DNA of 64,000 nucleotides from Bifidobacterium breve (GTDB lineage: Bacteria > Bacteroidota > Bacteroidia > AKYH767-A > OLB10): assembly GCA_943329665.2 (NCBI GenBank), contig CALQEU020000009.1:19489-83488 (forward strand), written 5' to 3'. Of the stretch, positions 1,379-48,672 are shown in pieces. A program made the translations under genes and the position numbers. The notes under the pieces were generated by a model. It worked only from the letters and a program-made list of their open reading frames with translations, did not search any database and was not told the origin of the DNA. Position 1 is the first letter of the stretch. Every line of letters starts with the position of its first letter.

Positions 1379-3730
1379 TTAATTCGACTTAATAAGCTTT
1401 TTCGTGCTCACCAATGCTCCATCTTTATATAAACCAATGATGTAAAGCCCCGGCACTTTTATTTTAGAACCATAAAGATGGCCATCATTTTGAACAATTT
1501 CCTCAGAACTGATCAATCGCCCCATACAATCATAAATAGTTAAATACATCGATTCACCTTTCGAATTCCCATTCAGATTTAACTGAAACGTTCCATTTCC
1601 TGGATTTGGGTAGATGGAAAACGCTTCTGATTTTGAGTTTTCATTCACCCCTGTAAATCCTTCTGTAACAGAAAATGCATCAAAACCACCTTCCAAGAAA
1701 TTTCCAGAACTAGCTTTGTCTTCAATAAATACTTTAAGTTGCATATTTGGTCCAGGTGTCATGAAATTAGATACTTTAATAAATTGATTTACCCATGTAC
1801 CAATTCCAGGAGTGGTATGCGATACAGCCTCTAGCGTTACCGTATTAACGCCATTCGTTAAACGAATAAATAAAGTATCACGATTCGCTAGCGGTACATT
1901 AGACGGACTTGAAAACCATCTTGCATAATTAATATAAGGATCTACATACGTTGTTAAATCAAAAACAGGAGAAGTAATTTCAGAAAAACCATTATCTAAA
2001 TTATGTGCACTAGCAGAACCTCCTAATAATCCAGTGACGAATGCAAAATCACCACAATCACTATTTACATCTAATTCAGGATTCAACGCTAAAGGTCCAA
2101 AGACTGTTCCCTCAGGATCGCCGCGTTCAAAAACACCATTGGTAGCTGTAGAATTGATAGTCCATCCTAAATCGGTTACAAAATCATCATAATAACCTTC
2201 TTGCAATGAAATTGAAAATGGAATAGATCCATCTAAAAAAACAGTTTGACAGAAACTAACAAAACCCCAATGCGTAGCCGTTATATCAATGTTGCCTGAT
2301 GATAAATTATTAAATGAAAAATTACCAGAGCCATCTGCAATAGCCGTTGCTGCGTTAATTCCGTCTGAAGCATAAATTGAAGCACCTGCAATGCCAACAG
2401 TTGTTGTAGCATTATTCACATTTCCTTGTATAACAAATGGTGTCATCAACGTATTGATGGTGGTTAATTGACCATTCACTAAACCAACACCAGGAAAAAA
2501 TTTAGAAACATAACCTGCCTTTTTAAATTCAATATCATAAGTGCCAGCTGTTACTAATCCAGTTTTGTATTCGCCCAACAAATTAGTGGTTGCGCTTTTG
2601 GTAGATGGGTTAATTAGTATGGTAACATTATTCAATGGAAGACCAGTAAGACTATCTGCTACGGTTCCTTCCAAATAACATGCTCTTTGGTAGTTGGGCT
2701 CAAAAACATATACACCTCCATCTACATCAGCCACAATAATTCGACCGCTCGGTAAATAGGGGGAAGCATCCCAACATAAAAATGAACCTGTTGGATAGCT
2801 TGCAATTTCAACAATGTTATTGGGACGTGCACCATCGCAAATAGTAAGTTGACTTCCATAGGATGGGTTGATTAAGTAATCATTCAACACTCTTACATTA
2901 TGTACTTCCTCGTTTGGCATACTATCGGTAAGATACGTATCTACTAATTTTATATTCGAAAGATTTGTTACATCAAATGAACCTAATGGTTGTCCATTTA
3001 CTTCATCCGTAGTAAATAAAAATTGGGAGTTGTCGGTTAACCATGTATTATGACAAAATTGGCCAGGAGTAGTTTGTGTAGCTAGTAAAACGGGATTCGC
3101 TTTATTGGAAACATCGATCACACTAAATTGTCCCGCATAAATTTCACCAGCCCACAACGTATCGCTACGAATATAACCGTCATGTATGTACTCTAAATTA
3201 TATTGTCCAACATAAGTTGGATTCCATGGATCAGCTAAATCCAAGATAATTACACCCCCATTTGCCAAACCATTTCCAGTTCCAAAAACATAAGCATAAC
3301 CATCCGTGACGGCAAGAGTATGTGCCGAAGTAATTTGATTAGCAATTAATCCATCTCCATAATAATGTTTTGAATTGACAGCACCTGGAAGGTTACTTAA
3401 ATCGATGATAGTTACACCACCACCACCTTCACTTACAGCATAAGCATATTTACCATATGTTTTAATTTCTCTCCAAAGGGAAGATTGACCTTGCAATGCA
3501 GGAACAGAAAACACTTCCGATAATGTTGCTGGAGTTGTTACATCCACAATGGCAACACGATCATCTACACCCACCAATGCATATTCGTTTCCTATAGAAT
3601 CTACATAATGCCAAATCCCTGCACATGTATTATTAGGGTAGGGAAGGTGACCTAATAAATTAAGATTGAATTGTGCTTGGGAAGCAATGCTTAACACTAA
3701 AAAAGCAAATAACAGTTGAATTTTTTTCAT
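1379..3730 (-). CDS. T9SS-sorted secreted protein (LVIVD / choice-of-anchor-B-like N-terminal repeats, carboxypeptidase-regulatory-like beta-sandwich, C-terminal sorting domain)
   Basis: 783-aa ORF starting at an ATG with a signal peptide (MKKIQLLFAFLVLSIASQAQ). The C-terminal ~80 aa (FSIYPNPGNGTFQLNL...GLYIIGLYKDGALVSTKKLIKSN) match the type-A T9SS CTD pattern. The family of the N-terminal part is assigned from memory only. Confidence 0.8.
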   Translation of the reverse strand: MKKIQLLFAFLVLSIASQAQFNLNLLGHLPYPNNTCAGIWHYVDSIGNEYALVGVDDRVAIVDVTTPATLSEVFSVPALQGQSSLWREIKTYGKYAYAVSEGGGGVTIIDLSNLPGAVNSKHYYGDGLIANQITSAHTLAVTDGYAYVFGTGNGLANGGVIILDLADPWNPTYVGQYNLEYIHDGYIRSDTLWAGEIYAGQFSVIDVSNKANPVLLATQTTPGQFCHNTWLTDNSQFLFTTDEVNGQPLGSFDVTNLSNIKLVDTYLTDSMPNEEVHNVRVLNDYLINPSYGSQLTICDGARPNNIVEIASYPTGSFLCWDASPYLPSGRIIVADVDGGVYVFEPNYQRACYLEGTVADSLTGLPLNNVTILINPSTKSATTNLLGEYKTGLVTAGTYDIEFKKAGYVSKFFPGVGLVNGQLTTINTLMTPFVIQGNVNNATTTVGIAGASIYASDGINAATAIADGSGNFSFNNLSSGNIDITATHWGFVSFCQTVFLDGSIPFSISLQEGYYDDFVTDLGWTINSTATNGVFERGDPEGTVFGPLALNPELDVNSDCGDFAFVTGLLGGSASAHNLDNGFSEITSPVFDLTTYVDPYINYARWFSSPSNVPLANRDTLFIRLTNGVNTVTLEAVSHTTPGIGTWVNQFIKVSNFMTPGPNMQLKVFIEDKASSGNFLEGGFDAFSVTEGFTGVNENSKSEAFSIYPNPGNGTFQLNLNGNSKGESMYLTIYDCMGRLISSEEIVQNDGHLYGSKIKVPGLYIIGLYKDGALVSTKKLIKSN

Positions 3731-3884
3731 AACAGATGTATTAAATTATTTTGGTGTTCAAACTTAAGGAAATAGATGGTGGTTCGCGGAATAAAATGTA
3801 CACGATTTTACTAAAACGTCAAACTTTAACGCTAAATTGACATTTCACTGATTCGACACGATCAAAAAAGAGGAAGAAAATAAA

Positions 3885-4775
3885 TTATTTATTGGATTTA
3901 ACGAACGAAATTATTTTTTGAGCTAATCCATTGGAGACTTTCACAACGGGCAAACGTACATGATCATCCATTATACCCAATTGCTTTAGTGCACATTTAA
4001 TTCCAGATGGACTTCCTTCCGCAAAAAGCATTGGAACCAGCGGCAAATATTTATAATGCAAGTTGGCGGCTTTTTTATTATCAGATTGTAAAGCGAGGCG
4101 AACCATGGTACTAAAATCCTTTGGATACCCATTGGCAAGTACAGAGATCACACCATTAGCTCCTGCAGCAATCAATGGCATCGTGATACCATCATCCCCA
4201 GAAATCACTAAAAAATCTTTTGGCTTTGAGCGAATAATTTCCATGATTTGCTCCATATTTCCGCTAGCTTCTTTTACACCAATAATCTTAGGTTGACTAT
4301 GCGCTAATGCCAATGTTGTTTCAGCGGTCATATTAGCCCCTGTTCGACCTGGAACATTGTAAAGAATGATCGGCAATGGGGATACTTGAGCCATCAACGT
4401 ATAGTGTGCTAAGATTCCCACCTGCGAAGGCTTATTATAATAGGGAGAAACCGAAAGCAATGCTGTAATGCCAGCAAAATCATTTTTCTCCAATTTCCAC
4501 AAAATATCCTGAGTATTATTTCCACCTAGCCCCATTACAATGGGGAGCTTACCTTCATTCGATTGGATTACACAATCTACTACGGCATTCTTCTCATCAT
4601 CACTTAGCGTTACGCTTTCACCAGTGGTACCTAAAGGAACTAAATACTCACATTTACCCTTGATGATATGCTTCACCAGTTTCTTCAACCCATTAAAATC
4701 AATTTGCCCATTATTTTTAAATGGAGTAACTAAAGCAACACCGGTTCCGGTTAATAATTTAGAGTATTTACTCAT
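3885..4775 (-). CDS. dapA: 4-hydroxy-tetrahydrodipicolinate synthase
   Basis: 296 aa. Typical DapA N-terminus (GTGVALVTPF...VPLGTTGES) and a catalytic-Lys region (IIGVKEASGN). ATG confirmed at 4773-4775. Confidence 0.93.
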   Translation of the reverse strand: MSKYSKLLTGTGVALVTPFKNNGQIDFNGLKKLVKHIIKGKCEYLVPLGTTGESVTLSDDEKNAVVDCVIQSNEGKLPIVMGLGGNNTQDILWKLEKNDFAGITALLSVSPYYNKPSQVGILAHYTLMAQVSPLPIILYNVPGRTGANMTAETTLALAHSQPKIIGVKEASGNMEQIMEIIRSKPKDFLVISGDDGITMPLIAAGANGVISVLANGYPKDFSTMVRLALQSDNKKAANLHYKYLPLVPMLFAEGSPSGIKCALKQLGIMDDHVRLPVVKVSNGLAQKIISFVKSNK

Positions 4776-37934: not shown

Positions 37935-39356
37935 TTATGGTGTTGGTCCAATGAAGTTTGATTCTTCTTCACCGAGTTTTTTTCCTTGTGAGAGCACTTG
38001 TATTTTAATTTTTGTTTTTGATTTTACTATCTCTTTTTGATCTAAGATCACAAAGAATTCGCCTTCGGCAATATCTTGTTCTTTTAATTCTGTAAAGTTT
38101 TTTCCTACCCACTGAATTGTTCCTTTTGGCTCTACAATTTTTATTTCGATGGGCAAATTATTAAACGTTTTGTTCACCACTTTTATATTGTAAAGGTTGC
38201 TCACTTTCTGATTGGGCAACTCTTGGTAAAGCATTCCGGGGGTTCTTAAAATGGTAGCTTCCACATCGGTTCGTATAGCCAGTAATGTGATGAGGGCCCC
38301 CAGTAAAATAAAGAGAACTACGGAGTAGCCAATGATACGTGTGGTTACTTTGAATTTAATTCCTTTAGCAATGGCATTTTCACTGGTGTATCGAATAAGT
38401 CCGCGTGGCAAATCAACTTTGTCCATGATGGAATCACAAGCGTCAATGCAAGCGGTACAGTTCACACATTCCAATTGGGTACCGTTTCTGATATCAATTC
38501 CCGTAGGGCATACTTGCACACACTGATGGCAATCGATACAATCACCAGCCTTCCGCTCTTGTCCCTTGTGCAATTTCTCACGAGGCTCACCACGGTTGTA
38601 ATCATAGGCGATGACCACTGAATTTTTATCCAACAACACACCTTGTAAACGACCATAAGGACAAACTACAATGCATGCTTGTTCTCTAAACTTAGTGTAC
38701 ACACCGTAAAACACCAAGGTAAAAATGGACAAGCTAATGAGTCCACCCAAATGTTGGGAAGGACCTTCACTTATTATTTCGAATAACTTATCAACTCCAA
38801 TGATGTAAGCTAAGAATGTATTGGCGATGATAAAAGAGATAATAAAGAAAATACTATTCTTTAAAAACTTCTTTCTAAATTTTATGGGATTGGGCGACTC
38901 TGCATTCAATGCTTTTTGCTGCATATAATCGCCTTCTATTAAGTATTCAATTTTACGGAACACCATCTCCATAAAAATAGTTTGAGGACAAGCCCATCCA
39001 CACCAAATACGTCCAAAGAGTGCAGTAAACAATATGATGAACACAATAAATGTTAGCATGGCTAACACAAACAGATGGAAGTCTTGTGGCCAAAATGCAA
39101 TTCCAAATAAAATAAATTTACGCTCTAATATATTAAAAAGCATTAAGGGATGCCTCTTAATTTTCATAAACGGACCACTAAAAAGTAAAATCAAAAAGAA
39201 AATACTTACTGCAGTACGCTTATTATAAAAATCTCCTTTTGGCTTTTTCGGATAGATCCAATTCCGTTTTCCATCCTCTGAAATCGTCGCAACGGTATCG
39301 CGAAAACTTCCTTTTGGATCGGGAAGGGGAGGAGCTATGGGATTAGGATCTGACAA
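37935..39356 (-). CDS. ccoG: Cytochrome c oxidase accessory protein CcoG/FixG (4Fe-4S ferredoxin)
   Basis: 473 aa. Cys clusters CIDCHQCVQVCP and CVNCTACIDAC, plus CGWACPQT. A TTG start lies 4 nt after the ccoP stop codon. Confidence 0.9.
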   Translation of the reverse strand: MSDPNPIAPPLPDPKGSFRDTVATISEDGKRNWIYPKKPKGDFYNKRTAVSIFFLILLFSGPFMKIKRHPLMLFNILERKFILFGIAFWPQDFHLFVLAMLTFIVFIILFTALFGRIWCGWACPQTIFMEMVFRKIEYLIEGDYMQQKALNAESPNPIKFRKKFLKNSIFFIISFIIANTFLAYIIGVDKLFEIISEGPSQHLGGLISLSIFTLVFYGVYTKFREQACIVVCPYGRLQGVLLDKNSVVIAYDYNRGEPREKLHKGQERKAGDCIDCHQCVQVCPTGIDIRNGTQLECVNCTACIDACDSIMDKVDLPRGLIRYTSENAIAKGIKFKVTTRIIGYSVVLFILLGALITLLAIRTDVEATILRTPGMLYQELPNQKVSNLYNIKVVNKTFNNLPIEIKIVEPKGTIQWVGKNFTELKEQDIAEGEFFVILDQKEIVKSKTKIKIQVLSQGKKLGEEESNFIGPTP

Positions 39357-39359
39357 GTT

Positions 39360-40331
39360 TTATTGGTTTACGATGATGATGCTATCGACGCTGATACTAT
39401 CTGTTAGTTGTGAACTTATCATTTCTTCAACATACTTTTCACCTTGAGGTTCCTTTCCACCCACGGGATTACTTCCATGCTTGGTCAAGATAAAGCTTGC
39501 GACTTGTTGTATTTGTTTTGGCGTCAATTGCGATTTCCAAGAAATCATTCCTTTTGCTGGAACACCTTCCGTAATGACTTTGAAAATATTCCTGATACCA
39601 CCGCCATTGATCCAAAAATCGTCCGTTAAATTGGGTCCTACACTACCACCTAATTCAGCACCGTGACATGCAACACAATTTTTATCATAAATTCCTTTTC
39701 CAGCACCTAATGCTTCCGGTGTATTTAGAGCTGTGATTGTTTCAGCAGAAACAAAATCCTTCATGCTTAACTCGCGAGCTTTCGCTTGATCTGCGGCTTC
39801 TTGCATAGCAATATTATATTCTTCGGTTTGTAGTGGACCTGTTCTGAAAAGATGATAATGTGCTAAATAAACAAACGCAAAAATGATGGTTGCATAAAAT
39901 CCCCATACCCACCACGGCGGTAAATTATTATCCAATTCTTTAATCCCATCATAATTGTGATCCAACATAATGTCGGCTTCTTTTTCTACCGGTACTGCTT
40001 TCGTAAGTATATCCCGATCGAAGCGTGTCCAAAAACTAGGCCCATGCAATTCTTCTTCAAAGGCTTTTTCCTTCTTGAGTTCTAGAGCTTGTCTTTTTTC
40101 TGGTGAAAGCAAAGCATATGATAATTTCTTTAAACTTTTAGTTAAAGAAATAATGACAATGAGCATGATGAGAAATAAAAAGATCAGCAGATAAAGTTCC
40201 GATTGAAAAAATATTTCCGGAACTTTTTCAGTCGCTGGAGTAGGCGTAACTGCACCTTGTCCAAAGGAAGTAAGATTGGATGCCGCTAGAAGGAATCCAG
40301 AGTGAAGTATTTTGTTAAATCTATTTTTCAT
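39360..40331 (-). CDS. ccoP: cbb3-type cytochrome c oxidase subunit III (mono-heme form)
   Basis: 323 aa. CcoP N-terminal motif (HNYDGIKELDNNLPPWW) and a single CVACH heme-c site. Confidence 0.85.
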   Translation of the reverse strand: MKNRFNKILHSGFLLAASNLTSFGQGAVTPTPATEKVPEIFFQSELYLLIFLFLIMLIVIISLTKSLKKLSYALLSPEKRQALELKKEKAFEEELHGPSFWTRFDRDILTKAVPVEKEADIMLDHNYDGIKELDNNLPPWWVWGFYATIIFAFVYLAHYHLFRTGPLQTEEYNIAMQEAADQAKARELSMKDFVSAETITALNTPEALGAGKGIYDKNCVACHGAELGGSVGPNLTDDFWINGGGIRNIFKVITEGVPAKGMISWKSQLTPKQIQQVASFILTKHGSNPVGGKEPQGEKYVEEMISSQLTDSISVDSIIIVNQ

Positions 40332-40341
40332 AGATGTATTT

Positions 40342-40518
40342 TTAATCGTTGTTAAGTTCTGAGTTTTCTAAAGGAATTCGACTTGCTTTTTCAATATGTT
40401 CTTTGTCCATCTTTATCAAATAGGCAATGAGAACAGTAAAGAATGCGAAGAATACGAGTAAGGAGAATATAGGATAGATGCTCACGCCAGCTATACTTTC
40501 AAGGATATTTCTAAACAT
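40342..40518 (-). CDS. ccoQ: CcoQ/FixQ-like small membrane subunit (58 aa, below the ORF-track cutoff)
   Basis: My own translation gives MFRNILESIAGVSIYPIFSLLVFFAFFTVLIAYLIKMDKEHIEKASRIPLENSELNND. It has one TM segment, lies between ccoNO and ccoP, and the G..IYPI.SLL.FF pattern resembles Bacteroidota CcoQ. Confidence 0.65.
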   Translation of the reverse strand: MFRNILESIAGVSIYPIFSLLVFFAFFTVLIAYLIKMDKEHIEKASRIPLENSELNND

Positions 40519-40529
40519 ATCTTTTCGTT

Positions 40530-42644
40530 TTATTCGGTTTTAGATGCTTTGATATCTGTTCCCAATCGTTGCAAGTAGGCGATGATAGCAATGAGTTCTT
40601 TATTGGAATCGATGCTCACCTTATTTATCTTGAGATCGTCTGCTATGCTCTTCGCTTGCTTGGTAAGATCATCGTTTGCTTTAACATCATATCCTGCAGG
40701 ATAGGGAACTCCTAAAGTTTGCATGGCTCTAATTTTTGCAGGAGTACTTGTAATGTCTAATTCATTTTCAGCCATGAATGCATAGGATGGCATGATGGAA
40801 CCAGGAGACATAATAGTTGGATCAATCATATGATGGTAATGCCATACATTCGGATATTTTCCACCTTGGCGATGCAAATCCGGACCCGTTCGTTTCGATC
40901 CCCATTGGAATGGATGATCGTAAACAAATTCACCAGCTTTGGAATATTCACCATAACGTTCGGTCTCTGATCGGAATGGTCGCACCATCTGTGAGTGACA
41001 TGTGTAACAGCCTTCACGTATGTAAATATCTCTACCTTGTAATTCTAAAGGTGTATAAGGTTTCACACTCGCAATGGTGGGTATATTCGATTGCACAAGG
41101 AACGTAGGAATAAACTCGACAACACCACCAATCAAAATGACAACCGCACTTAAAATAATCATTTGTACTGGACGACGCTCAATCCAACGATGCCAATGAC
41201 CTGCATGCTCTTTCTCATTTTTCTCTAGTTTTGGAGCTTCTGCAGCTTCTTCTGCATTCAATGTTCCTTGCTTCATCGTTTTTACCAAGTTATACGCCAT
41301 CGTGATGGCACCAGTCAGAAACATCAATCCACCTAATGCACGAAGTTTATACATCGGCATAATCTGGGTAACAGTCTCGAGGAAGTTTGGATATTTTAGA
41401 ATTCCATCTGCTGTAAATTCTTTCCACATTAAACTTTGTGTGAATCCTGCCCAATACATCGGCACAGCGTAGAATAAAATCCCAAGTGTGGCAATCCAAA
41501 AATGGAAGGAAGCTAATTTAGCAGAGTATAAATTGGTTTTGTAAAGTCGAGGTATTAACCAATACAAAATACCAAAGGTCAACATACCATTCCATCCCAT
41601 TCCACCAATGTGTACGTGAGCGATGGTCCAGTCCGTAAAGTGACTAATGGCATTCACACTTTTCAACGATAACATCGGACCTTCAAATGTCGACATACCA
41701 TAAGCGGTAATCGCTACCACCATAAATTTCAATACCACATCTTCTCGAACACGATCCCATGCACCACGTAGTGTTAACAGTCCATTGATCATCCCACCCC
41801 AGGATGGAGCTAAGAGCATAATGGAAAATACCGTTCCTAAAGATTGTGCCCAATCAGGTAAGGATGAATATAAAAGATGATGAGGACCTGCCCAGATGTA
41901 TAAAAATATCAATGCCCAAAAGTGAATGATGGATAATCGATACGAATATACAGGTCGATTTGCAGCTTTCGGAACGAAGTAATACATCAATCCTAAGTAA
42001 GGCGTTGTTAAGAAAAATGCAACCGCATTATGTCCGTACCACCATTGCACTAACGCATCTTGAACGCCCGCGTATGCAGAATAACTTTTTAAGATGCTAA
42101 CTGGAATTTCAATAGAGTTTACAATATGTAAAACGGCAACTGTAACCACAGTAGCAATATAAAACCAAATAGCAACATACATATGTCGCTCTCTTCGTTT
42201 GATAAGCGTTCCAAACATATTTATAGCAAAAGCTACCCAAACAATAGCGATAAGAATATCGATAGGCCATTCCAATTCTGCATATTCTTTTCCAGTGGTA
42301 TGTCCAGTAAGCAAAGTCACCGCTGCAAGAACGATGATCGATTGCCATCCCAAAAAATGAAATTTACTCAAGCCATCACTAAACATTCGTGCTTTACACA
42401 AACGTTGTAATGAATAATACAATCCCATAAAAATTCCATTCCCTACAAATGCGAAGATGATCGCATTGGTATGTACCGGTCGGACTCGACCGAAAGTCAA
42501 GTACTCGCCAATGTTAAGTCCGGGGAACGGAATTTGTAAAGCTATGATAAGCCCTAGTAACATGCCGACAAGCCCCCAAATGATGGTGGCTAAGGCAAAG
42601 TTTTTAACGATGCGGTTGTCGTAGCTAAATTTTTCAATCGTCAT
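40530..42644 (-). CDS. ccoNO: Fused cbb3-type cytochrome c oxidase subunits I and II (CcoN-CcoO)
   Basis: 704 aa. The N-terminal ~470 aa form a heme-copper oxidase subunit I (12 or more TM segments with His ligands, e.g. WTIAHVH). The C-terminal ~220 aa are CcoO with the heme-c site CYTCHSQM. Confidence 0.93.
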   Translation of the reverse strand: MTIEKFSYDNRIVKNFALATIIWGLVGMLLGLIIALQIPFPGLNIGEYLTFGRVRPVHTNAIIFAFVGNGIFMGLYYSLQRLCKARMFSDGLSKFHFLGWQSIIVLAAVTLLTGHTTGKEYAELEWPIDILIAIVWVAFAINMFGTLIKRRERHMYVAIWFYIATVVTVAVLHIVNSIEIPVSILKSYSAYAGVQDALVQWWYGHNAVAFFLTTPYLGLMYYFVPKAANRPVYSYRLSIIHFWALIFLYIWAGPHHLLYSSLPDWAQSLGTVFSIMLLAPSWGGMINGLLTLRGAWDRVREDVVLKFMVVAITAYGMSTFEGPMLSLKSVNAISHFTDWTIAHVHIGGMGWNGMLTFGILYWLIPRLYKTNLYSAKLASFHFWIATLGILFYAVPMYWAGFTQSLMWKEFTADGILKYPNFLETVTQIMPMYKLRALGGLMFLTGAITMAYNLVKTMKQGTLNAEEAAEAPKLEKNEKEHAGHWHRWIERRPVQMIILSAVVILIGGVVEFIPTFLVQSNIPTIASVKPYTPLELQGRDIYIREGCYTCHSQMVRPFRSETERYGEYSKAGEFVYDHPFQWGSKRTGPDLHRQGGKYPNVWHYHHMIDPTIMSPGSIMPSYAFMAENELDITSTPAKIRAMQTLGVPYPAGYDVKANDDLTKQAKSIADDLKINKVSIDSNKELIAIIAYLQRLGTDIKASKTE

Positions 42645-42829
42645 ACAGCGTCTGTATTTTTAGAATTAGGTTGTTCTTTTTGAGTTACTATTTCGTCGTC
42701 AAATAATATTCGTACTGCTGGCGATACATCATCATCATATTGTCCTGTCTTCACCGACCATAAAAATCCAATGAGGAAACTTCCTGCTACTAATAAGCTA
42801 AATGATATTAATATTAAGATGACACTCAT
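42641..42829 (-). CDS. ccoS: cbb3 oxidase maturation protein CcoS/FixS
   Basis: MSVILILISFSLLVAGSFLIGFLWSVKTGQYDD is CcoS-like. It overlaps the ccoNO start by 4 nt. The ATG at 42829 is preferred to the TTG at 42838. Confidence 0.8.
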   Translation of the reverse strand: MSVILILISFSLLVAGSFLIGFLWSVKTGQYDDDVSPAVRILFDDEIVTQKEQPNSKNTDAV

Positions 42830-42835
42830 GATGCG

Positions 42836-42843
42836 CAAATCTA
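42836..42843 (-). promoter_or_regulatory. -7 promoter box (TAGATTTG on the minus strand) just upstream of ccoS
   Basis: Plus-strand CAAATCTA at 42836-42843. It is only 6 nt from the ccoS ATG, which implies a very short or absent leader. Confidence 0.35.
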
Positions 42844-42887
42844 CTTTTGAAGAATATAATTCAGACTGACAAATCTTATCATTTGGA

Positions 42888-42901
42888 TTGACAATTATCA
42901 G
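42888..42901. promoter_or_regulatory. FNR/FixK-like palindrome TTGACAATTATCAG upstream of ccoS-ccoNO
   Basis: The pattern is TTGAC-N4-ATCA. Its centre is 65.5 nt upstream of the ccoS ATG. It overlaps the ccoI stop codon (42898-42900). Confidence 0.4.
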
Positions 42902-45321
42902 TTTTTCATTCTTGTTAAACCCAAACTTCTCGCTTTTATACTACTTGCAAGCACAGTGTAAATCACTAAGCTACTCGTGCTGATGGGCATAAGGATCGCA
43001 GCAATGATGGGAGATAAAGTGCCTTGTACAGCAAACCAAAGTCCCACTAAATTGTAGAAAATAGAAATGACAAAACTAATAAGGATGATGCGATGTCCCG
43101 ATTTTGCAAAGCGCAGCAAATTTTCAATTTGGCCAAAATTTTTGGATAAGATAATTCCATCACTTCCAGGAGTAAAGTTGTTAATGTCTTCTGCAATAGC
43201 TAATCCTACATCACTTTGCATGAGCGCCCCAGCATCGTTGAGTCCATCACCAATCATCATTACTTTTTTTCCTTGTGATTGCAATTCTTTAATACTATTT
43301 AATTTATCGATAGGCTTTTGTTCAAATTGAATTCCTTCTTTTTGATCCAAGATTTCTTCCAAGTGAGATTGTTCAAAATTAAAATCACCACTCAGAACGG
43401 AAATTTTATATCCCTCTTTCTTCATTGCATGTAATAGTGAAGAGGTAGATTGACGATAAGAAGTTTTGAAATAAAAGAATCCCAATAATTTTCCATCAAT
43501 ACTTACACCTACTTCAGATGATTTTACATTTTCATTGTGTGCTTTAGCAACATGTATGAAACTTCTTGATCCCAATTGAACAAAACTTCCCTGTATCGAA
43601 CCTTCGATGCCTTTTCCATTAATTTCCTTTAGATGGGTAATAGGCAATTTATTATTGGAAGAAGATAGAAAGTTGGATAACATCCTACTGAATGGATGAG
43701 AAGATGCATGGGCAAGCGATGCAATAAATTGCTTCTGTAACTCGGTAGGTTCTATTCCAAAATATTCAACTTTATAGTTTTCTGCAGAGGTAAGCGTTCC
43801 TGTTTTATCAAAAACAACAGAATCAATATTTGATAAGCGTTCTAAGACTTTTGTGTTCTTCAAATAGATACCACGCTTACCTAAAATACGAATCATATTG
43901 CCAAATGTAAATGGTGCCGATAACGCCAATGCACAAGCACATGCAATTACTAATACGGAGCTAAATGCTAGCATTGCTCTAGATGGATCTGTCGGGTACC
44001 AGTAGAGTAGGGCGACGACAGCTATGCTTATCGTTATTACGACAAACCATTTGCTGATGCTTTCGGTAAGATGGGCATATTTACTTTTTGTATCGCTTTT
44101 ACCTGAACTTTGATTCCAGAGCTTAGTGATATAACTGTGCGAAACATCCTTTTGAACAAGCACCTCAACGGGTTTACCTATTAATCGTGCCCCAGCAAAA
44201 ATTCGTTCGCCATACTGACAAGTAACTTCTCTTGATTCACCGGTTACAAAACTATAATCGACATGAGCTTGTTTACTAACTAATAACACATCAGCAGGAA
44301 TAATTTCCTGATTTCGGATGAATAAACGATCATTGGGTTTGATCTCTTGAACGGAAACAACTTCTTCCTCAGTTCCATTTAGCCGACTTACTGCAATGGG
44401 AAAGTAAGATTTATAGTCTCGTTCGAAGCTGAGCCATTCATATGTTTTGCTTTGGAAATTTCGTCCGATGAGCATAAAAAAAACCAAGCCTGTCATACTA
44501 TCAAAATAACCAGGACCTGTATCAGAAACTACTTCATAAATACTTCTCGAAAACATCGCAACAATTCCGATGGCTATGGGTACATCTATATTAATGATTT
44601 TTTGACGAAAGCTCATTAAAGCATTTTCTAAAAACTCGTTTGCACTGTAAAAGAATACGGGTAGAGAAAGTAATAAATTCAAATACCCGAAGATGCGATG
44701 AAAATCTTCACCTTCATATTTACCAGATGAAAAGTATTCAGGAAAGCTGAGCAACATAATATTTCCAAAAACGAATCCTGCTATTCCAATCTTATAGATT
44801 CGAGTTTTACTGGACACTTTTGTTTCGCCCTTCTCTAATTCTTTCAAATTAAGTTCAGGAGGATAAGCAATTTCATGTAGTTTCTCCACAATTATTCGCA
44901 AACTCGTTTTAGTATCATCGAAAATGAGGTGCAATTCCTTCTGAATAAAATTGGTTTTAGAACTGATGATACCCGCGTCCAAACGATTCATATGTTCCAA
45001 TAGCCAAATACAACTGGCGCAGTGCATGGCCGGAATGTGGAATTGAATATGAGATACATTACCCTCTTTAAAGAGAATGAGCTTGTCAGAAATGGAAGAT
45101 TGATCTAAATAAGCATATCGGTTACCTAAAAGCGTTTGTGTTTTTCCTGGAGAAGATTGCAGATCATAATAACCACATAAATTATTTTCTTGCAAAAGTT
45201 CAAAAACCAATTTGCAACCTTGACAACAAAAAGATTTACTGTCAAGCACTACGCTCTCTTCTTTGCAATTTTCACCGCAGTGATAGCACTGAGTTTCAGT
45301 ATGAATAATGTTTTCACGCAT
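42898..45321 (-). CDS. ccoI: Heavy-metal (copper) translocating P1B-type ATPase CcoI/FixI
   Basis: 807 aa. N-terminal Cys-rich region, CAC in TM6 (IACACALALS), phosphorylation site DKTGTLT, and the hinge GDGLNDAGAL. Confidence 0.9.
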   Translation of the reverse strand: MRENIIHTETQCYHCGENCKEESVVLDSKSFCCQGCKLVFELLQENNLCGYYDLQSSPGKTQTLLGNRYAYLDQSSISDKLILFKEGNVSHIQFHIPAMHCASCIWLLEHMNRLDAGIISSKTNFIQKELHLIFDDTKTSLRIIVEKLHEIAYPPELNLKELEKGETKVSSKTRIYKIGIAGFVFGNIMLLSFPEYFSSGKYEGEDFHRIFGYLNLLLSLPVFFYSANEFLENALMSFRQKIINIDVPIAIGIVAMFSRSIYEVVSDTGPGYFDSMTGLVFFMLIGRNFQSKTYEWLSFERDYKSYFPIAVSRLNGTEEEVVSVQEIKPNDRLFIRNQEIIPADVLLVSKQAHVDYSFVTGESREVTCQYGERIFAGARLIGKPVEVLVQKDVSHSYITKLWNQSSGKSDTKSKYAHLTESISKWFVVITISIAVVALLYWYPTDPSRAMLAFSSVLVIACACALALSAPFTFGNMIRILGKRGIYLKNTKVLERLSNIDSVVFDKTGTLTSAENYKVEYFGIEPTELQKQFIASLAHASSHPFSRMLSNFLSSSNNKLPITHLKEINGKGIEGSIQGSFVQLGSRSFIHVAKAHNENVKSSEVGVSIDGKLLGFFYFKTSYRQSTSSLLHAMKKEGYKISVLSGDFNFEQSHLEEILDQKEGIQFEQKPIDKLNSIKELQSQGKKVMMIGDGLNDAGALMQSDVGLAIAEDINNFTPGSDGIILSKNFGQIENLLRFAKSGHRIILISFVISIFYNLVGLWFAVQGTLSPIIAAILMPISTSSLVIYTVLASSIKARSLGLTRMKN

Positions 45322-45368
45322 GGTAGTTCCTAGACGAGCAATTTTACTTCAACTATTGGAAAGAGATA

Positions 45369-45382
45369 TTGACGAAAGTCAT
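45369..45382. promoter_or_regulatory. FNR/FixK-like palindrome TTGACGAAAGTCAT (ccoI-proximal)
   Basis: TTGAC-N4-GTCAT within ATATTGACGAAAGTCAT. Its centre is 54.5 nt from the ccoI ATG (45321). Confidence 0.45.
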
Positions 45383-45427
45383 CTTTAGTACTGATCCATC
45401 TCAAATCGGATTTTGTCAGCGCTAATA

Positions 45428-45441
45428 TTGACTTATGTCAT
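45428..45441. promoter_or_regulatory. FNR/FixK-like palindrome TTGACTTATGTCAT (proximal to the 45489 ORF)
   Basis: TTGAC-N4-GTCAT within ATATTGACTTATGTCAT. Its centre is 54.5 nt from the ATG at 45489. It shares 13 of 17 positions with the site at 45369. Confidence 0.45.
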
Positions 45442-45488
45442 AGAAATAATGATAGAATTCTTTCATTTTTGTTGAATATATACCGAAA

Positions 45489-45926
45489 ATGTACAGTCGA
45501 TTTAATCAAAATGAAATGCTGAAAATCCTAATTAGTGACGAGCGAAAATTAATGGAAATACAAAAGGATTTTACGTTATATTTTCCCTTCTTGAAACTAG
45601 AATTTTTTAAAGCTCCCCATAAAATTGGAGATGGCTCTGCTAAAAATTTACTGCTCGATTCCAATAAGTTGATCAAGGATTGTAGAAGCAGCCGTCCAAC
45701 GCTTCATATAGAAATCAAAGAAAGTATGACGGTAGATCAATTGGAGCAATTATTATTTGAAAACTTCGGATTGGCAGCCCAAGTGTTTAGAAAATCAGGA
45801 AACGTTTGGTTAGAAACATCGGCTACCGATAACTGGACCTTACTTCAACAGAATAATGAAGGAGCAGAATTGTCAACCCAAATCAAGGAGAACCGCGAAA
45901 ATTTAGATAATATCGATCCTTACTAA
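45489..45926 (+). CDS. Hypothetical protein, divergent from ccoI
   Basis: 145-aa ORF with an ATG start and no recognised motif. Confidence 0.6.
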   Translation: MYSRFNQNEMLKILISDERKLMEIQKDFTLYFPFLKLEFFKAPHKIGDGSAKNLLLDSNKLIKDCRSSRPTLHIEIKESMTVDQLEQLLFENFGLAAQVFRKSGNVWLETSATDNWTLLQQNNEGAELSTQIKENRENLDNIDPY

Positions 45927-46005: not shown

Positions 46006-47067
46006 TTATCCCTTCAACGACCTTAATTTCTTTTCATCAATGATTTTTATTTTTCCTCCTTTGATCTCGATCAAATTTTCTTCTTTGAAATCACTTAAAG
46101 TTCTAATTAAAGACTCTGTCGCTGTACCCACAATATTCGCTAAGTCATCACGCGCAATGGCCATTGAAAACTGTCCTTCGTCCTTGACTTGATATTTTTC
46201 CTGAAGTAGGATTAAAGCTTCCGCCGTTCTTTTTCTTACAGAACTATAGGCCAAGTCCACTAAACGCTCTTGTTTGTCGACAACACCTTTCGTAAGAATT
46301 TTTAAAAAGCTTCTCGTCACCGATACATTTCCAAAAATCATATTATGAAACTCGTCTTTTGGAATGAAAGTAATTTCGGAATCTTCTAAAGTTTCTGCTG
46401 ATTCATTATAAGGTTTCTCCTCTAATAAACTCGTGTAGGCAAAGAAGTCGCCTTCCTTTAAAAGATCAGTGATGAGTTCTTTTCCATACTCATGAGTCTT
46501 GAAAATCTTTACTTTCCCTTGGTTGATATAATAAAGACCATTTGGGTAATTTCCTTCAAGATAGATCGTCTCTTTCTTCTTGTAATGATTTATCTTTTTT
46601 CCTTCCAAAAATTTTTTCAATGCATTTGATCCCGCAACATCACTGATGAAGGTACTCAATCCGTCAAAGTCTTTTTCATATTCTTTTTTAAGTACCTCAG
46701 CCTTTTTTATACGACTTTCTACCGCATTTAATAATTCAGTCTTATCAAATGGTTTGGTGATATAATCATCTGCTCCTAAGTCCATGCCTTTACGCATATC
46801 GCTGCGTTCTGCTTTTGCAGTAAGGAAGATGAAAGGAATAGCTGACATCGCAGGATCTTTCCCTAAAAGATGCAAGACGCCATAGCCATCTAATCCTGGC
46901 ATCATGATGTCGCAAATGATTAAATCAGGTTGTTCTTGACGCGCCAATTCTACGCCTTCTTTTCCATCAGGTGCAGTGTACACTTTGTAATGTGCTAACT
47001 CTAAAATTTCAGCAGTGTTCTCACGAACATCTACATTGTCTTCAATTAATAATATTTTCTTGTCCAT
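46006..47067 (-). CDS. Response regulator with a receiver domain fused to a Crp/Fnr-type cNMP-binding domain and HTH
   Basis: 353 aa. The REC domain has E9/D10, D53 (IICDIMMPGLDG), T83 and K105 (ITKPF). The middle domain is a beta-roll cNMP-binding fold (IYLEGNYPNGLYYINQGKVKIFK...). The C-terminal Crp-type HTH reads RDDLANIVGTATESLIRTLSDF. There is no FNR-type Cys cluster. Confidence 0.88.
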   Translation of the reverse strand: MDKKILLIEDNVDVRENTAEILELAHYKVYTAPDGKEGVELARQEQPDLIICDIMMPGLDGYGVLHLLGKDPAMSAIPFIFLTAKAERSDMRKGMDLGADDYITKPFDKTELLNAVESRIKKAEVLKKEYEKDFDGLSTFISDVAGSNALKKFLEGKKINHYKKKETIYLEGNYPNGLYYINQGKVKIFKTHEYGKELITDLLKEGDFFAYTSLLEEKPYNESAETLEDSEITFIPKDEFHNMIFGNVSVTRSFLKILTKGVVDKQERLVDLAYSSVRKRTAEALILLQEKYQVKDEGQFSMAIARDDLANIVGTATESLIRTLSDFKEENLIEIKGGKIKIIDEKKLRSLKG

Positions 47068-47070
47068 ATT

Positions 47071-48318
47071 TTAATGTTGCTGAGGAAAAGTAATTTTAAT
47101 AGTTGTTCCCTTTTCCAATTCACTTTTAAGTTCTAAACTTCCGTTCATTAAATCAACATAACTTCCTACAATATGTAATCCTAATCCAGTTCCTTGAATG
47201 TTAAATGCATTTTTAGCTCTAAAGAAACGTTCAAATAAATGCTTTTGGTCTTCTTTACTAATTCCAATTCCTTTATCTTTTATTTCGATAAAAACAGAAA
47301 GGTCATTCACTTGAACAGAAACCAGTATTTTTTTGTTTTCAGGACTAAATTTAACGGCATTATTGATTAAATTAATAAGAATATTCTTGATCAATTTTAT
47401 GTCTAACGAAACTTCAGCATTTCCTACATGCTGATAAACGATTTCTTGTCCTGACTTTACATTTAATTGCAAATCGCTCACTATTTCCTTCACTAAATGT
47501 GGCAAATCAAATTTCCTAAATTCAGTATGTACTTTTCCTTCTTCCAATTTGCTAAGCGATAAAAAGTCACTCAAAATGTCATTTAAATTGTTCACCGCTG
47601 ATTTGATTCTAGAAATATGTTTTTCTCTTTTGTCATTATTTGCGGTCTCTACATATTCAGAGATAAGGCTCGCTGAAGAGAGAATCGTGGTCAAGGGTGT
47701 TCTGAATTCATGAGAAGCCATAGAAATAAACCTTGATTTTAAATCATTAAGATCTTTTTCCTTCTCCAATGCAAGTCGTAATTCTTCCTTCGACTTCTCC
47801 AATTCCCGAATGGCTTCTTGCAAAACCTTCGTTCGGTCAGAAACTTTCTTTTCCAATCCTTCATTGGTAGTGATGAGCGCTGCAGCTACACGCTCTAATT
47901 CATGTTGCTTCTCTTTAACAGTGACCTCAATTCCTTTTCTAACAGTGATGTCTATAATAAAGGCAACAACAAATTTTTGCCCTTTGATTTGCACTGGGCT
48001 CAAACTTATTTCCACTGGAAATTGTGTTCCGTCTTTTCTTTCTGCAAAAAGATCCATTCCCGTACCCATGGGACGGGCATATAGTTCTTTGCTATAATTT
48101 TCTCGATGATTGTGATGATGTCCTCTAACATTGGATGGAACTATATCTTCAATCTTTAATTCATGTAATTCTTCATCGGTATGACCCAACATCCTCGCTG
48201 CAGAACTATTCGCCATACGAATTCGCCCTTCCATATCCGATACAATGATCCCTTCCGTGGCATCTTTGAAGACGGTATCAATAATTTCACTTCTGTTAAT
48301 TTCATCCATAATTCTCAT
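47071..48318 (-). CDS. Cytoplasmic PAS-domain sensor histidine kinase (FixL-like PAS core)
   Basis: No TM segments. PAS domain at roughly aa 17-130 in track numbering, a coiled-coil linker, H box SHEFRTPLT, N box NLINNAVKFS, G1 DKGIGI and G2 GTGLGL. Its stop codon is 3 nt before the regulator's ATG. The start is ATG 48318 or 48309; the track's TTG at 48333 is less likely. Confidence 0.88.
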   Translation of the reverse strand: MRIMDEINRSEIIDTVFKDATEGIIVSDMEGRIRMANSSAARMLGHTDEELHELKIEDIVPSNVRGHHHNHRENYSKELYARPMGTGMDLFAERKDGTQFPVEISLSPVQIKGQKFVVAFIIDITVRKGIEVTVKEKQHELERVAAALITTNEGLEKKVSDRTKVLQEAIRELEKSKEELRLALEKEKDLNDLKSRFISMASHEFRTPLTTILSSASLISEYVETANNDKREKHISRIKSAVNNLNDILSDFLSLSKLEEGKVHTEFRKFDLPHLVKEIVSDLQLNVKSGQEIVYQHVGNAEVSLDIKLIKNILINLINNAVKFSPENKKILVSVQVNDLSVFIEIKDKGIGISKEDQKHLFERFFRAKNAFNIQGTGLGLHIVGSYVDLMNGSLELKSELEKGTTIKITFPQQH

Positions 48319-48383
48319 TCCAAGTCTACGCAATAAATGTAATTATTTTCATAGACTTCGGAGAATATGGAACTCTACTAAAA

Positions 48384-48581
48384 TCAGACATCTCCTGTTT
48401 TAGGATGATTCGTGTTGATGCCTAAAATGCTATATAGCGGGCAAATACCAACAACGCCTGTAATAAATGGGATGAGACCTAAAAGCGCCCAAGGACTGTT
48501 GTGGTATACAAAAAACATGGCGATGGTCACACCTAGAAATACTCTAATTACCCGATCGGTAGAACTTTCATTTGTTTTCAT
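48384..48581 (-). CDS. DUF2892 (YgaP-like) small membrane protein
   Basis: 65 aa. DRVIRVFLGV...GICPLYSILGI is the DUF2892 pattern. Confidence 0.7.
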   Translation of the reverse strand: MKTNESSTDRVIRVFLGVTIAMFFVYHNSPWALLGLIPFITGVVGICPLYSILGINTNHPKTGDV

Positions 48582-48658
48582 GATGTTGCAGTTTAAATTT
48601 GATTTTCAAAAATAAACTGCTAAATCGTTTTTGTAACTATCAAAAATCAGCTCAAAAA

Positions 48659-48672
48659 ATGATCTTTGTCAG
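48659..48672. promoter_or_regulatory. Weaker FNR-like palindrome ATGATCTTTGTCAG upstream of the DUF2892-kinase-regulator genes
   Basis: TGAT-N4-GTCA. Its centre is 84.5 nt upstream of the DUF2892 ATG (48581). Confidence 0.25.

Follow-up and report, generated by a model that had tools for sequence, protein, structure and literature searches.

Tandem FNR/FixK-type boxes at four promoters of a Bacteroidota cbb3 oxidase locus, and a probable low-oxygen switch acting through them

In a 64,000-nucleotide (nt) stretch of a Bacteroidota genome (contig CALQEU020000009.1, positions 19,489 to 83,488; hereafter the window), the genes of a cbb3-type cytochrome oxidase lie close to those of a histidine kinase and of a regulator in which a receiver domain (REC) is fused to the cNMP_binding and HTH_Crp domains of a Crp/Fnr-type protein. 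Four promoters of this locus, those of ccoI, of the divergent open reading frame (ORF) ORF145, of ccoS-ccoNO and of the ygaP-kinase-regulator operon, each carry two FNR/FixK-type boxes and a TAnnTTTG-like -7 element (Table 1). Their geometry is identical: a proximal 14-mer is followed, after a 22-nt gap, by the 8-nt -7 element, and the second box stands 22 bp upstream of the first. We think it probable that these promoters belong to a low-oxygen (or haem-ligand) switch, in which a FixL-like kinase acts through the REC–Crp fusion on tandem boxes at four activator-dependent promoters. What is observed is the sequence, the spacing, the conservation, the synteny, the domain content and the enrichment in metagenomes.

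The proposed switch would work as follows. The cytoplasmic FixL-like haem-PAS kinase would sense low O2, or a related haem ligand or redox state, and would phosphorylate the receiver of the REC–cNMP–HTH_Crp regulator. The activated regulator would bind the tandem boxes as Crp-type dimers and, from the class II position, would recruit RNA polymerase. The outcome would be induction of the cbb3 oxidase, of the copper and assembly genes, of ORF145 and of the regulator's own operon, upstream of which boxes are also found, so that the circuit would include positive autoregulation. The tasks of FixJ and FixK would then be combined in a single protein.

A preliminary description of this DNA had reported two boxes in the intergenic region between the divergent start codons of ccoI (45321, - strand) and ORF145 (45489, + strand), a region of 167 nt. 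Their sequences on the + strand (box 1, TTGACGAAAGTCAT, our box B; box 2, TTGACTTATGTCAT, our box A) and their coordinates are reproduced here, as are their centres, 45375.5 and 45434.5, each of which lies 54.5 nt from its own ATG. Both ATATTGACGAAAGTCAT and ATATTGACTTATGTCAT fall inside this region, on the same strand, and the two 17-mers agree at 14 of 17 positions (82%), not at 13 as first counted. The mirror symmetry that had been claimed holds for position but not for sequence, the twin boxes being direct repeats on one strand. The count of sites also had to be revised. Between the two reported boxes lie a third full box (M) and a conserved half-site box (D'), and in place of the single dimer site per promoter that had been proposed, there are two boxes 22 bp apart at each, eight sites at four promoters. 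As a source of the twin boxes, a larger repeat or mobile element was considered and rejected; the repeat search gave the 17-nt direct repeat alone.

Counts within the window say little in favor of these sites. The exact pattern TTGAC-N4-GTCA occurs twice in the 64 kb, both times in the ccoI/ORF145 intergenic region, against a mean of 0.41 in shuffled sequence, and at least two matches arise somewhere in the window in 8 of 100 shuffles. With one mismatch allowed there is no enrichment in the window (12 found, 14 expected from shuffles). For ATATTGAC-N4-GTCAT, the window holds no further exact match, and the remaining matches require two mismatches. These within-window statistics are weak, and the case therefore rests on conservation and geometry. 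The shuffles and the one-mismatch count are also what can be said for the view that the twin boxes and their equal ATG distances are a functionless coincidence of an AT-rich intergenic region. We give that view practically no credence, because both exact matches sit within one stretch of 167 nt, because the half-sites are invariant at CcoI identities down to 65% while spacers and flanks drift, and because the fixed -7 spacing recurs across orders of the phylum.

The conservation is seen when the ccoI-upstream region of the window is aligned with those of eight relatives whose CcoI proteins are 65–92% identical to it (nine genomes in all). In the intergenic alignment, the columns without change are those of the TGA/TCA half-sites and of both -7 elements; the N4 spacers differ from genome to genome. 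Fixed half-sites with free spacers are the pattern expected of a dimeric transcription-factor site. Conservation of the boxes in related genomes had been named beforehand as a check, and TGA/TCA is indeed kept in all eight relatives; the assignment of the boxes to FNR/FixK-class palindromes at promoter positions is thereby borne out, and chance is ruled out, since the CcoI proteins of these genomes are only 65–92% identical. In box M, TTGA....ATCA is invariant, and in box A, which stands 22 nt before the ORF145 -7 element, TATGAC....RTCAA. Box D' is the weakest of the eight sites. Only its GTCAG half, on the side of box A, meets the consensus, but it lies exactly 22 bp from box A, and its CTGAC element, read on the ccoI strand, is kept in the nine genomes. 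Of the -7 elements, that of ccoI is invariant as GTA...TTGC and that of ORF145 as TTCATTTTTGT (ACAAAAATGAA as read on the ccoI strand). The ATAT flank common to the twin boxes is not kept in the relatives. The designs at the ccoS-ccoNO and ygaP-kinase-regulator promoters are conserved in eight of eight relatives. Across the locus, boxes B, M, A, S1 and H1 have a perfect TGA-N6-TCA, with the outer T/A present on one side only, and a position-weight matrix built from 21 orthologous sites gives the consensus nTGA(C/T)-N4-(G/A)TCAn, a 14-bp dyad.

Across the phylum, what stays constant is the spacing of 22 nt from box to -7 element and not the distance to the ATG. We surveyed 71 Bacteroidota ccoI loci for an nAnnnTTG element placed downstream of a perfect nTGA-N6-TCAn box at any gap from 10 to 39 nt. 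The 22-nt gap occurs upstream of ccoI in 22 of the 71, among them members of the Flavobacteriales, Cytophagales and Chitinophagales, and any other gap in 0 to 3 loci, whereas the box-to-ATG distance ranges from 33.5 to 205.5 nt. The earlier argument that equal spacing is not due to chance thus survives in part: chance is excluded by conservation, but the equal 54.5 nt is a by-product of promoter geometry, following from the fixed box/-7 arrangement and equal 17-nt stretches from -7 element to ATG at both promoters. The tandem design also extends beyond the window clade. A distal box (at most one mismatch) lies at exactly -22 in 14 of the 22 loci, including 7 of 15 outside the window clade, and no other offset is enriched; flavobacterial ccoI loci have the proximal box alone.

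Two relatives differ in layout on the ORF145 side. In L005 (5375-5860) and L007 (5578-5835), the divergent box A/-7 promoter beside ccoI is kept, and ORF145 lies 250–480 nt farther off, with a second box, 22-nt gap and -7 promoter of its own (CTGATATTTATCAT...CACTTTTG). The stretch between the box A promoter and ORF145 contains no convincing ORF and no Rfam match, and at gathering score no known RNA family was found in the window, L005 or L007. The first promoter in these relatives may drive a small unannotated gene or RNA.

In the transcription start map of Flavobacterium psychrophilum, the sigmaA element TAnnTTTG spans -12 to -5 (PMC9723704). Because, at all four promoters, the center of the proximal box precedes the first T of the -7 element by 29.5 nt, and the paired boxes are 22 bp apart, the box centers are predicted at -41.5 and -63.5; as 22 bp is about two helical turns, the two boxes of a pair would lie on about the same face of the DNA. 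A tight architecture scan (at most two core mismatches over the two boxes and at most one in TAnnTTTG), with a pattern set after the sites had been seen, finds four matches in the window, exactly the four promoters, against a mean of 0.14 and a maximum of 2 in 200 Markov shuffles; a looser version is not discriminating (7 found, 3.5 expected). Other matches to the matrix in the window (13684, 14847, 24348, 50278 and others) are treated as chance: they are intragenic or sit between convergent genes, with no -7 element at the spacing required. A sigma-70 promoter and terminator scan of the window was uninformative (26 found, 22 expected), as expected for Bacteroidota.

At none of the four promoters is there a TTG in the four positions right after the box, the place expected of a -33 element given the usual spacer of 19 nt, and this absence fits activator-dependent promoters. 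The opposite has to be weighed, namely that the boxes are repressor operators and that the regulator at -41.5 blocks RNA polymerase until a signal removes it. Such occlusion is geometrically possible, as a site spanning about -48 to -35 overlaps the -33 contact region. We nevertheless regard repression as improbable. The missing TTG is typical of activator dependence, FNR, CRP and FixK canonically activate from -41.5 at class II promoters, and the downstream genes, here and in the metagenome loci described below, form the classic positively controlled hypoxia set (cbb3, Usp, Hsp20, radical SAM). Moreover, the cbb3 oxidase of a flavobacterium, F. psychrophilum, is strongly induced by O2 limitation (PMC9723704).

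The adjacent REC–cNMP–HTH_Crp protein is, as had been suggested, the best candidate to bind the boxes, a view that comparison among genomes favors. Its receiver (Response_reg, E = 9e-30) has ED at residues 9-10, Asp53 in IICDIMMPG, Thr83 and Lys105, and its C-terminal 220 residues comprise cNMP_binding and HTH_Crp_2. At the locus there is no LuxR-type HTH protein, and no receiver lies beside the kinase but the one in this fusion. Beside ccoI, most other lineages instead encode a Crp/Fnr protein of 229–243 amino acids (aa) with CxxC...C...C cysteines (a few ORF calls reach 265 aa and one is truncated at 202), for which NCBIfam gives Fnr or FnrL as the best match, below cut-off. The recognition helix of these Cys-rich proteins, VGTATESxIRxLSEFK, is nearly identical to that of the REC fusion (VGTATESLIRTLSDFK in the window), where the stretch TESLIR retains Glu and Arg at the E-x3-R spacing and has Ile at the Ser position. 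The window regulator has a single Cys; the CxxC...C...C Fe-S pattern is absent from it and present only in the non-REC orthologues of other orders. Evolutionarily, the regulator looks like the phylum's ccoI-linked FNR-type protein with the Cys (Fe-S) sensor end exchanged for a receiver domain. The fusion is found at ccoI in the window clade and in L063, L017 and L074, and proteins of this architecture number in the thousands in Bacteroidota metagenomes, annotated merely as "response regulator." In L063, no kinase was found beside the REC–Crp gene in the 6 kb upstream, where the ORFs scanned were a symporter and UxuA. REC–Crp homologues about 65% identical occur in L081 and L082/L083, where linkage to cco genes is not constant: L081 has the kinase, the regulator and a box-controlled ORF145 homologue and no cco genes, and L082 and L083 have no kinase, ORF145 or boxes within 6 kb of the regulator.

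The same comparison raises the possibility that the boxes are genuine FNR-type operators bound by another Crp/Fnr paralogue, for example a Cys-rich Fe-S FNR, with the REC–Crp protein having other targets or sharing the sites. Bacteroidota without the REC fusion have the same box and spacing upstream of ccoI, beside a Cys-rich FNR-like gene; the tandem -63.5/-41.5 design is also present in the non-REC lineages L030, L034 and L037; and only 64 kb of this genome is visible to us. Set against this, the REC fusion occupies the genomic position of the FNR-like gene in the window clade, L063, L017 and L074, with no second Crp-type gene within 6 kb in any of them, and its recognition helix is the same as that of the FNR-like proteins. 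Further, loci captured by promoter architecture (described below) are strongly enriched for REC–Crp genes (14 of 120, versus 7 of 120 for non-REC Crp-type genes). A paralogue as the binder thus seems unlikely, and we favor the REC–Crp fusion.

The kinase (PAS-HisKA-HATPase, H-box SHEFRTPL) gives the proposed switch its candidate sensor. The best PDB matches of its PAS domain are the haem domains of FixL (1d06, E = 8e-11; 1dp6; 8js5) and DosP, and the His that aligns with the proximal His (His200) of Bradyrhizobium japonicum FixL is present without exception in 16 homologues. The FixL distal Arg220, which contacts bound O2, aligns within PAS residues about 70–100 of the kinase; most other homologues have Arg there and the window clade has Met or Leu, and the sensed ligand may, to judge from these residues, differ within the kinase family. 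In L004 (2989-4124), the orthologous kinase is split into two ORFs, 2989-3294 and 3303-4124, which suggests a frameshift, a pseudogene or an assembly error.

The protein encoded by ORF145 had been placed in the same regulon as the copper ATPase, and this placement is upheld, as the tandem-box design precedes ORF145 in every lineage examined. ORF145 is present in 12 of 12 REC–Crp ccoI loci and in none of about 30 loci with the Cys-type regulator, and it adjoins REC–Crp genes in L081, L117, L139 and L150. Together, this co-occurrence and the tandem boxes make ORF145 a core member of the regulon, tied to its two-component version. The protein has no match in Pfam, NCBIfam or PDB sequence searches, and the 196 homologues detected are all unannotated. 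Its AlphaFold2 model (predicted local distance difference test score 77.7) gives, in Foldseek against PDB, non-significant di-ubiquitin-like matches only (E > 0.1, template-modeling score about 0.2), and for this reason no fold-based function was assigned. By analogy, ORF145 may be a FixT-like feedback modulator of the kinase or the regulator. The broader idea, that in a substantial share of the Bacteroidota a ccoI-linked FNR-type regulator swapped its Fe-S sensor for a receiver under a FixL-like kinase, with ORF145 as a dedicated third component, is one we put forward only tentatively.

The promoter design can be used without reference to gene content. We scanned metagenomes with the cis-pattern TGAY-N4-RTCA N10 TGAY-N4-RTCA N23 TANNTTTG, which returned 129 matches in 120 loci (0.69 Mb total, median 4.3 kb). 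An ATG-initiated ORF of at least 70 aa begins within 130 nt downstream in 93 of the 129. The downstream products include Usp (12), cytochrome c (7–9), radical SAM (4), Hsp20 (3), YceI (3–5), CcoI (3), ORF145 homologues (3), Crp/Fnr (2) and PPDK (2); an Rrf2 regulator (4) is often the divergent neighbor of the cytochrome c genes. Such a gene set is typical of a hypoxia regulon. Besides the 14 loci with REC–Crp, 11 of the 120 have a FixL-like kinase and 10 an ORF145 homologue, numbers well above those expected by chance, and 22 have at least one of the three. Some divergent promoters in this set share both boxes (L087:12093-12188, L120:4416-4511, L161:3428-3523; also L168, L187 and L200): each box is proximal to one promoter and distal to the other, and the pair is flanked by a -7 element at either end. 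The genes so arranged encode a 150–160-aa cytochrome c and an Rrf2-family regulator in L087, L120 and L161.

Several considerations weigh against the low-oxygen switch through the REC–Crp fusion. First, binding, activation as opposed to repression, the transcription starts, haem binding and the nature of the signal are what we infer; the sole RNA run held 5% of the sampled words, as contigs, from which no 5' ends could be mapped. Second, just one half-site is good in three of the eight sites (D', S2 and H2), and the architecture statistics share the drawback, noted above, of a pattern chosen with the sites in view. The density of REC–Crp genes in the captured loci, about 1 per 49 kb compared with roughly one per genome by chance, comes from a scan at one set of spacings. 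Third, FNR and FixK recognition helices have Ser in an E--SR motif where the window helix has Ile, and the boxes may be bound, instead or in addition, by a further Crp/Fnr paralogue whose helix is similar, 64 kb of the genome being covered. Fourth, given Met or Leu at the Arg220 position, O2 may not be the ligand. Finally, some REC–Crp homologues are not beside cco genes, and in L081 no box was found upstream of the kinase.

The coordinates of the locus are given in Table 1. The cbb3 structural and assembly genes ccoS, ccoNO, ccoP and ccoG (37935-42829, - strand) lie downstream of the S1/S2 promoter. The stop codon TGA of ccoI (42898-42900) doubles as the TGA half-site of box S1, and the ccoS-ccoNO operator therefore overlaps the end of the ccoI coding sequence; with the likely ccoS ATG at 42829, the ccoS-ccoNO mRNA would be nearly leaderless. 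The YgaP-like transmembrane protein, kept in all close relatives, is encoded at the head of the kinase-regulator operon, in which 3 nt separate the kinase gene from the regulator gene. A 17-nt inverted repeat (82% complementary; 45461-45477 and 45500-45516) extends across the ORF145 -7 element and codons 4–9. An RNA hairpin formed from it is unlikely, since its left arm lies mostly upstream of the predicted start. The window sequence is present exactly in lake-water metagenomes (DNA runs), and its nearest relatives are uncultured Bacteroidota, with CcoI 82–92% identical in L001–L004, L008 and L009 and about 65% identical in L005–L007.

Table 1. Genes, boxes and -7 elements of the cbb3 locus in window coordinates
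Feature	Coordinates	Strand	Sequence or Pfam domains	Description
ccoG	37935-39356	-	Fer4_18+FixG_C	
ccoP	39360-40331	-	FixP_N+Cytochrome_CBB3	
ccoNO	40530-42644	-	COX1+FixO	fused
ccoS	42641-42838	-	FixS	likely ATG 42829
ccoS-ccoNO -7 element	42836-42843	-	TAGATTTG	perfect TAnnTTTG
Box S2	42866-42879	-	ATAAGATTTGTCAG	proximal site, ccoS-ccoNO promoter; one good half; 22 bp from S1
Box S1	42888-42901	-	CTGATAATTGTCAA	distal site, ccoS-ccoNO promoter; kept in 8/8 relatives
ccoI/fixI	42898-45321	-	E1-E2_ATPase, Hydrolase, ATPase-cat_bd	807 aa; copper P-type ATPase, cbb3 maturation
ccoI -7 element	45339-45346	-	TAAAATTG	predicted start near 45334, 13-nt leader
Box B (box 1)	45369-45382	-	ATGACTTTCGTCAA	proximal site, ccoI promoter; center ~-41.5
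Box M	45391-45404	-	TTGAGATGGATCAG (+ strand: TGATCCATCTCAA)	distal site, ccoI promoter; center ~-63.5; 22 bp from box B
Box D'	45406-45419	+	TCGGATTTTGTCAG	distal position, ORF145 promoter; half-site box; center ~-63.5
Box A (box 2)	45428-45441	+	TTGACTTATGTCAT	proximal site, ORF145 promoter; center ~-41.5
ORF145 -7 element	45464-45471	+	CATTTTTG	predicted start near 45476, 13-nt leader
ORF145	45489-45926	+	no Pfam match	conserved Bacteroidota protein, 145 codons
Regulator	46006-47067	-	REC + cNMP_binding + HTH_Crp	353 aa
Histidine kinase	47071-48333	-	PAS-HisKA-HATPase	
YgaP-like membrane protein	48384-48581	-	PF11127, E = 4e-19	65 aa
ygaP-kinase-regulator -7 element	48607-48614	-	TATTTTTG	perfect
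Box H2	48637-48650	-	CTGATTTTTGATAG	proximal site, ygaP-kinase-regulator promoter; one good half; 22 bp from H1
Box H1	48659-48672	-	CTGACAAAGATCAT	distal site, ygaP-kinase-regulator promoter; kept in 8 relatives, spacer variable

Oxygen control of the cbb3 oxidase, a high-affinity enzyme, is well understood in Proteobacteria, where it runs through FNR and FixLJ–FixK. Bacteroidota are a dominant phylum in lakes, oceans, soils and wastewater. Our literature search found nothing on FNR-type boxes or cco regulation in Bacteroidota, on REC–Crp fusions or on FixL in Bacteroidetes, and a prior description may nonetheless exist. CRP/FNR homologues of Flavobacteriales and Saprospiraceae have been assigned to MalR-like carbon sensing, in a study that does not treat the cbb3 system (PMC8510549). 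The analysis offers a precise operator model that can be tested, with nTGAY-N4-RTCAn at -41.5 and -63.5 of promoters of the -7 type; a candidate pair of sensor and regulator, unusual in its domain fusion; and a first functional context for the unannotated ORF145 family. A simple sequence pattern can retrieve hypoxia-responsive promoters from metagenomes, and the case illustrates the swapping of sensor modules on a conserved DNA-binding chassis.

Of known systems, E. coli FNR offers a close parallel for the promoters themselves. As in FNR class II promoters, a 14-bp TGA-N6-TCA palindrome lies about 41.5 bp before the predicted start and replaces the upstream promoter element, and the orthologous ccoI-adjacent regulators of other Bacteroidota have FNR-like cysteines, with Fnr as their best match (below cut-off). 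The differences are that the window regulator, with one Cys and no Fe-S motif, would sense via phosphorylation; that its helix reads E-S-L-I-R in place of E-T-I-S-R in FNR, and the preferred half-site is TGAC in place of TTGAT; and that a second site at -63.5 is the rule in several Bacteroidota orders. Lacking the Fe-S cysteine motif, the regulator is not FNR proper.

In its overall logic, the system resembles FixL–FixJ–FixK2 of Bradyrhizobium and Sinorhizobium, which controls fixNOQP and fixGHIS. The two have in common a FixL-type PAS kinase (with haem binding here presumed from homology), a Crp/Fnr-type output protein without an Fe-S cluster, autoregulatory wiring, TTGA-N6-TCAA-like boxes upstream of the ccoNO, ccoP, ccoG, ccoI and ccoS genes, and regulon companions such as Usp, small heat-shock proteins and radical-SAM (HemN-like) enzymes. 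They differ in the lack here of a FixJ standing alone (REC plus LuxR-type HTH) and of a transcriptional step from FixJ to fixK, the receiver being fused to the Crp-type module; in the Bacteroidota -33/-7 sigmaA promoters with tandem sites 22 bp apart; and in the FixL distal Arg, which is not kept in the window clade. The system would thus work like FixLJ–FixK and yet, having no separate FixJ, is not a strict member of that family.

Other variants of the rhizobial scheme help to place these differences. FixT, a small FixK-induced protein that feeds back on the kinase, is the model for our suggestion about ORF145, although no similarity of ORF145 to FixT or to receiver domains was detected. In the hFixL–FxkR–FixK pathway of Rhizobium leguminosarum and R. 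etli, FxkR is not a fusion but a regulator of the OmpR type that acts on the fixK promoter. That pathway and the FixLJ–FixK–FixT system of Caulobacter indicate that the link from FixL to FixK is evolutionarily replaceable.

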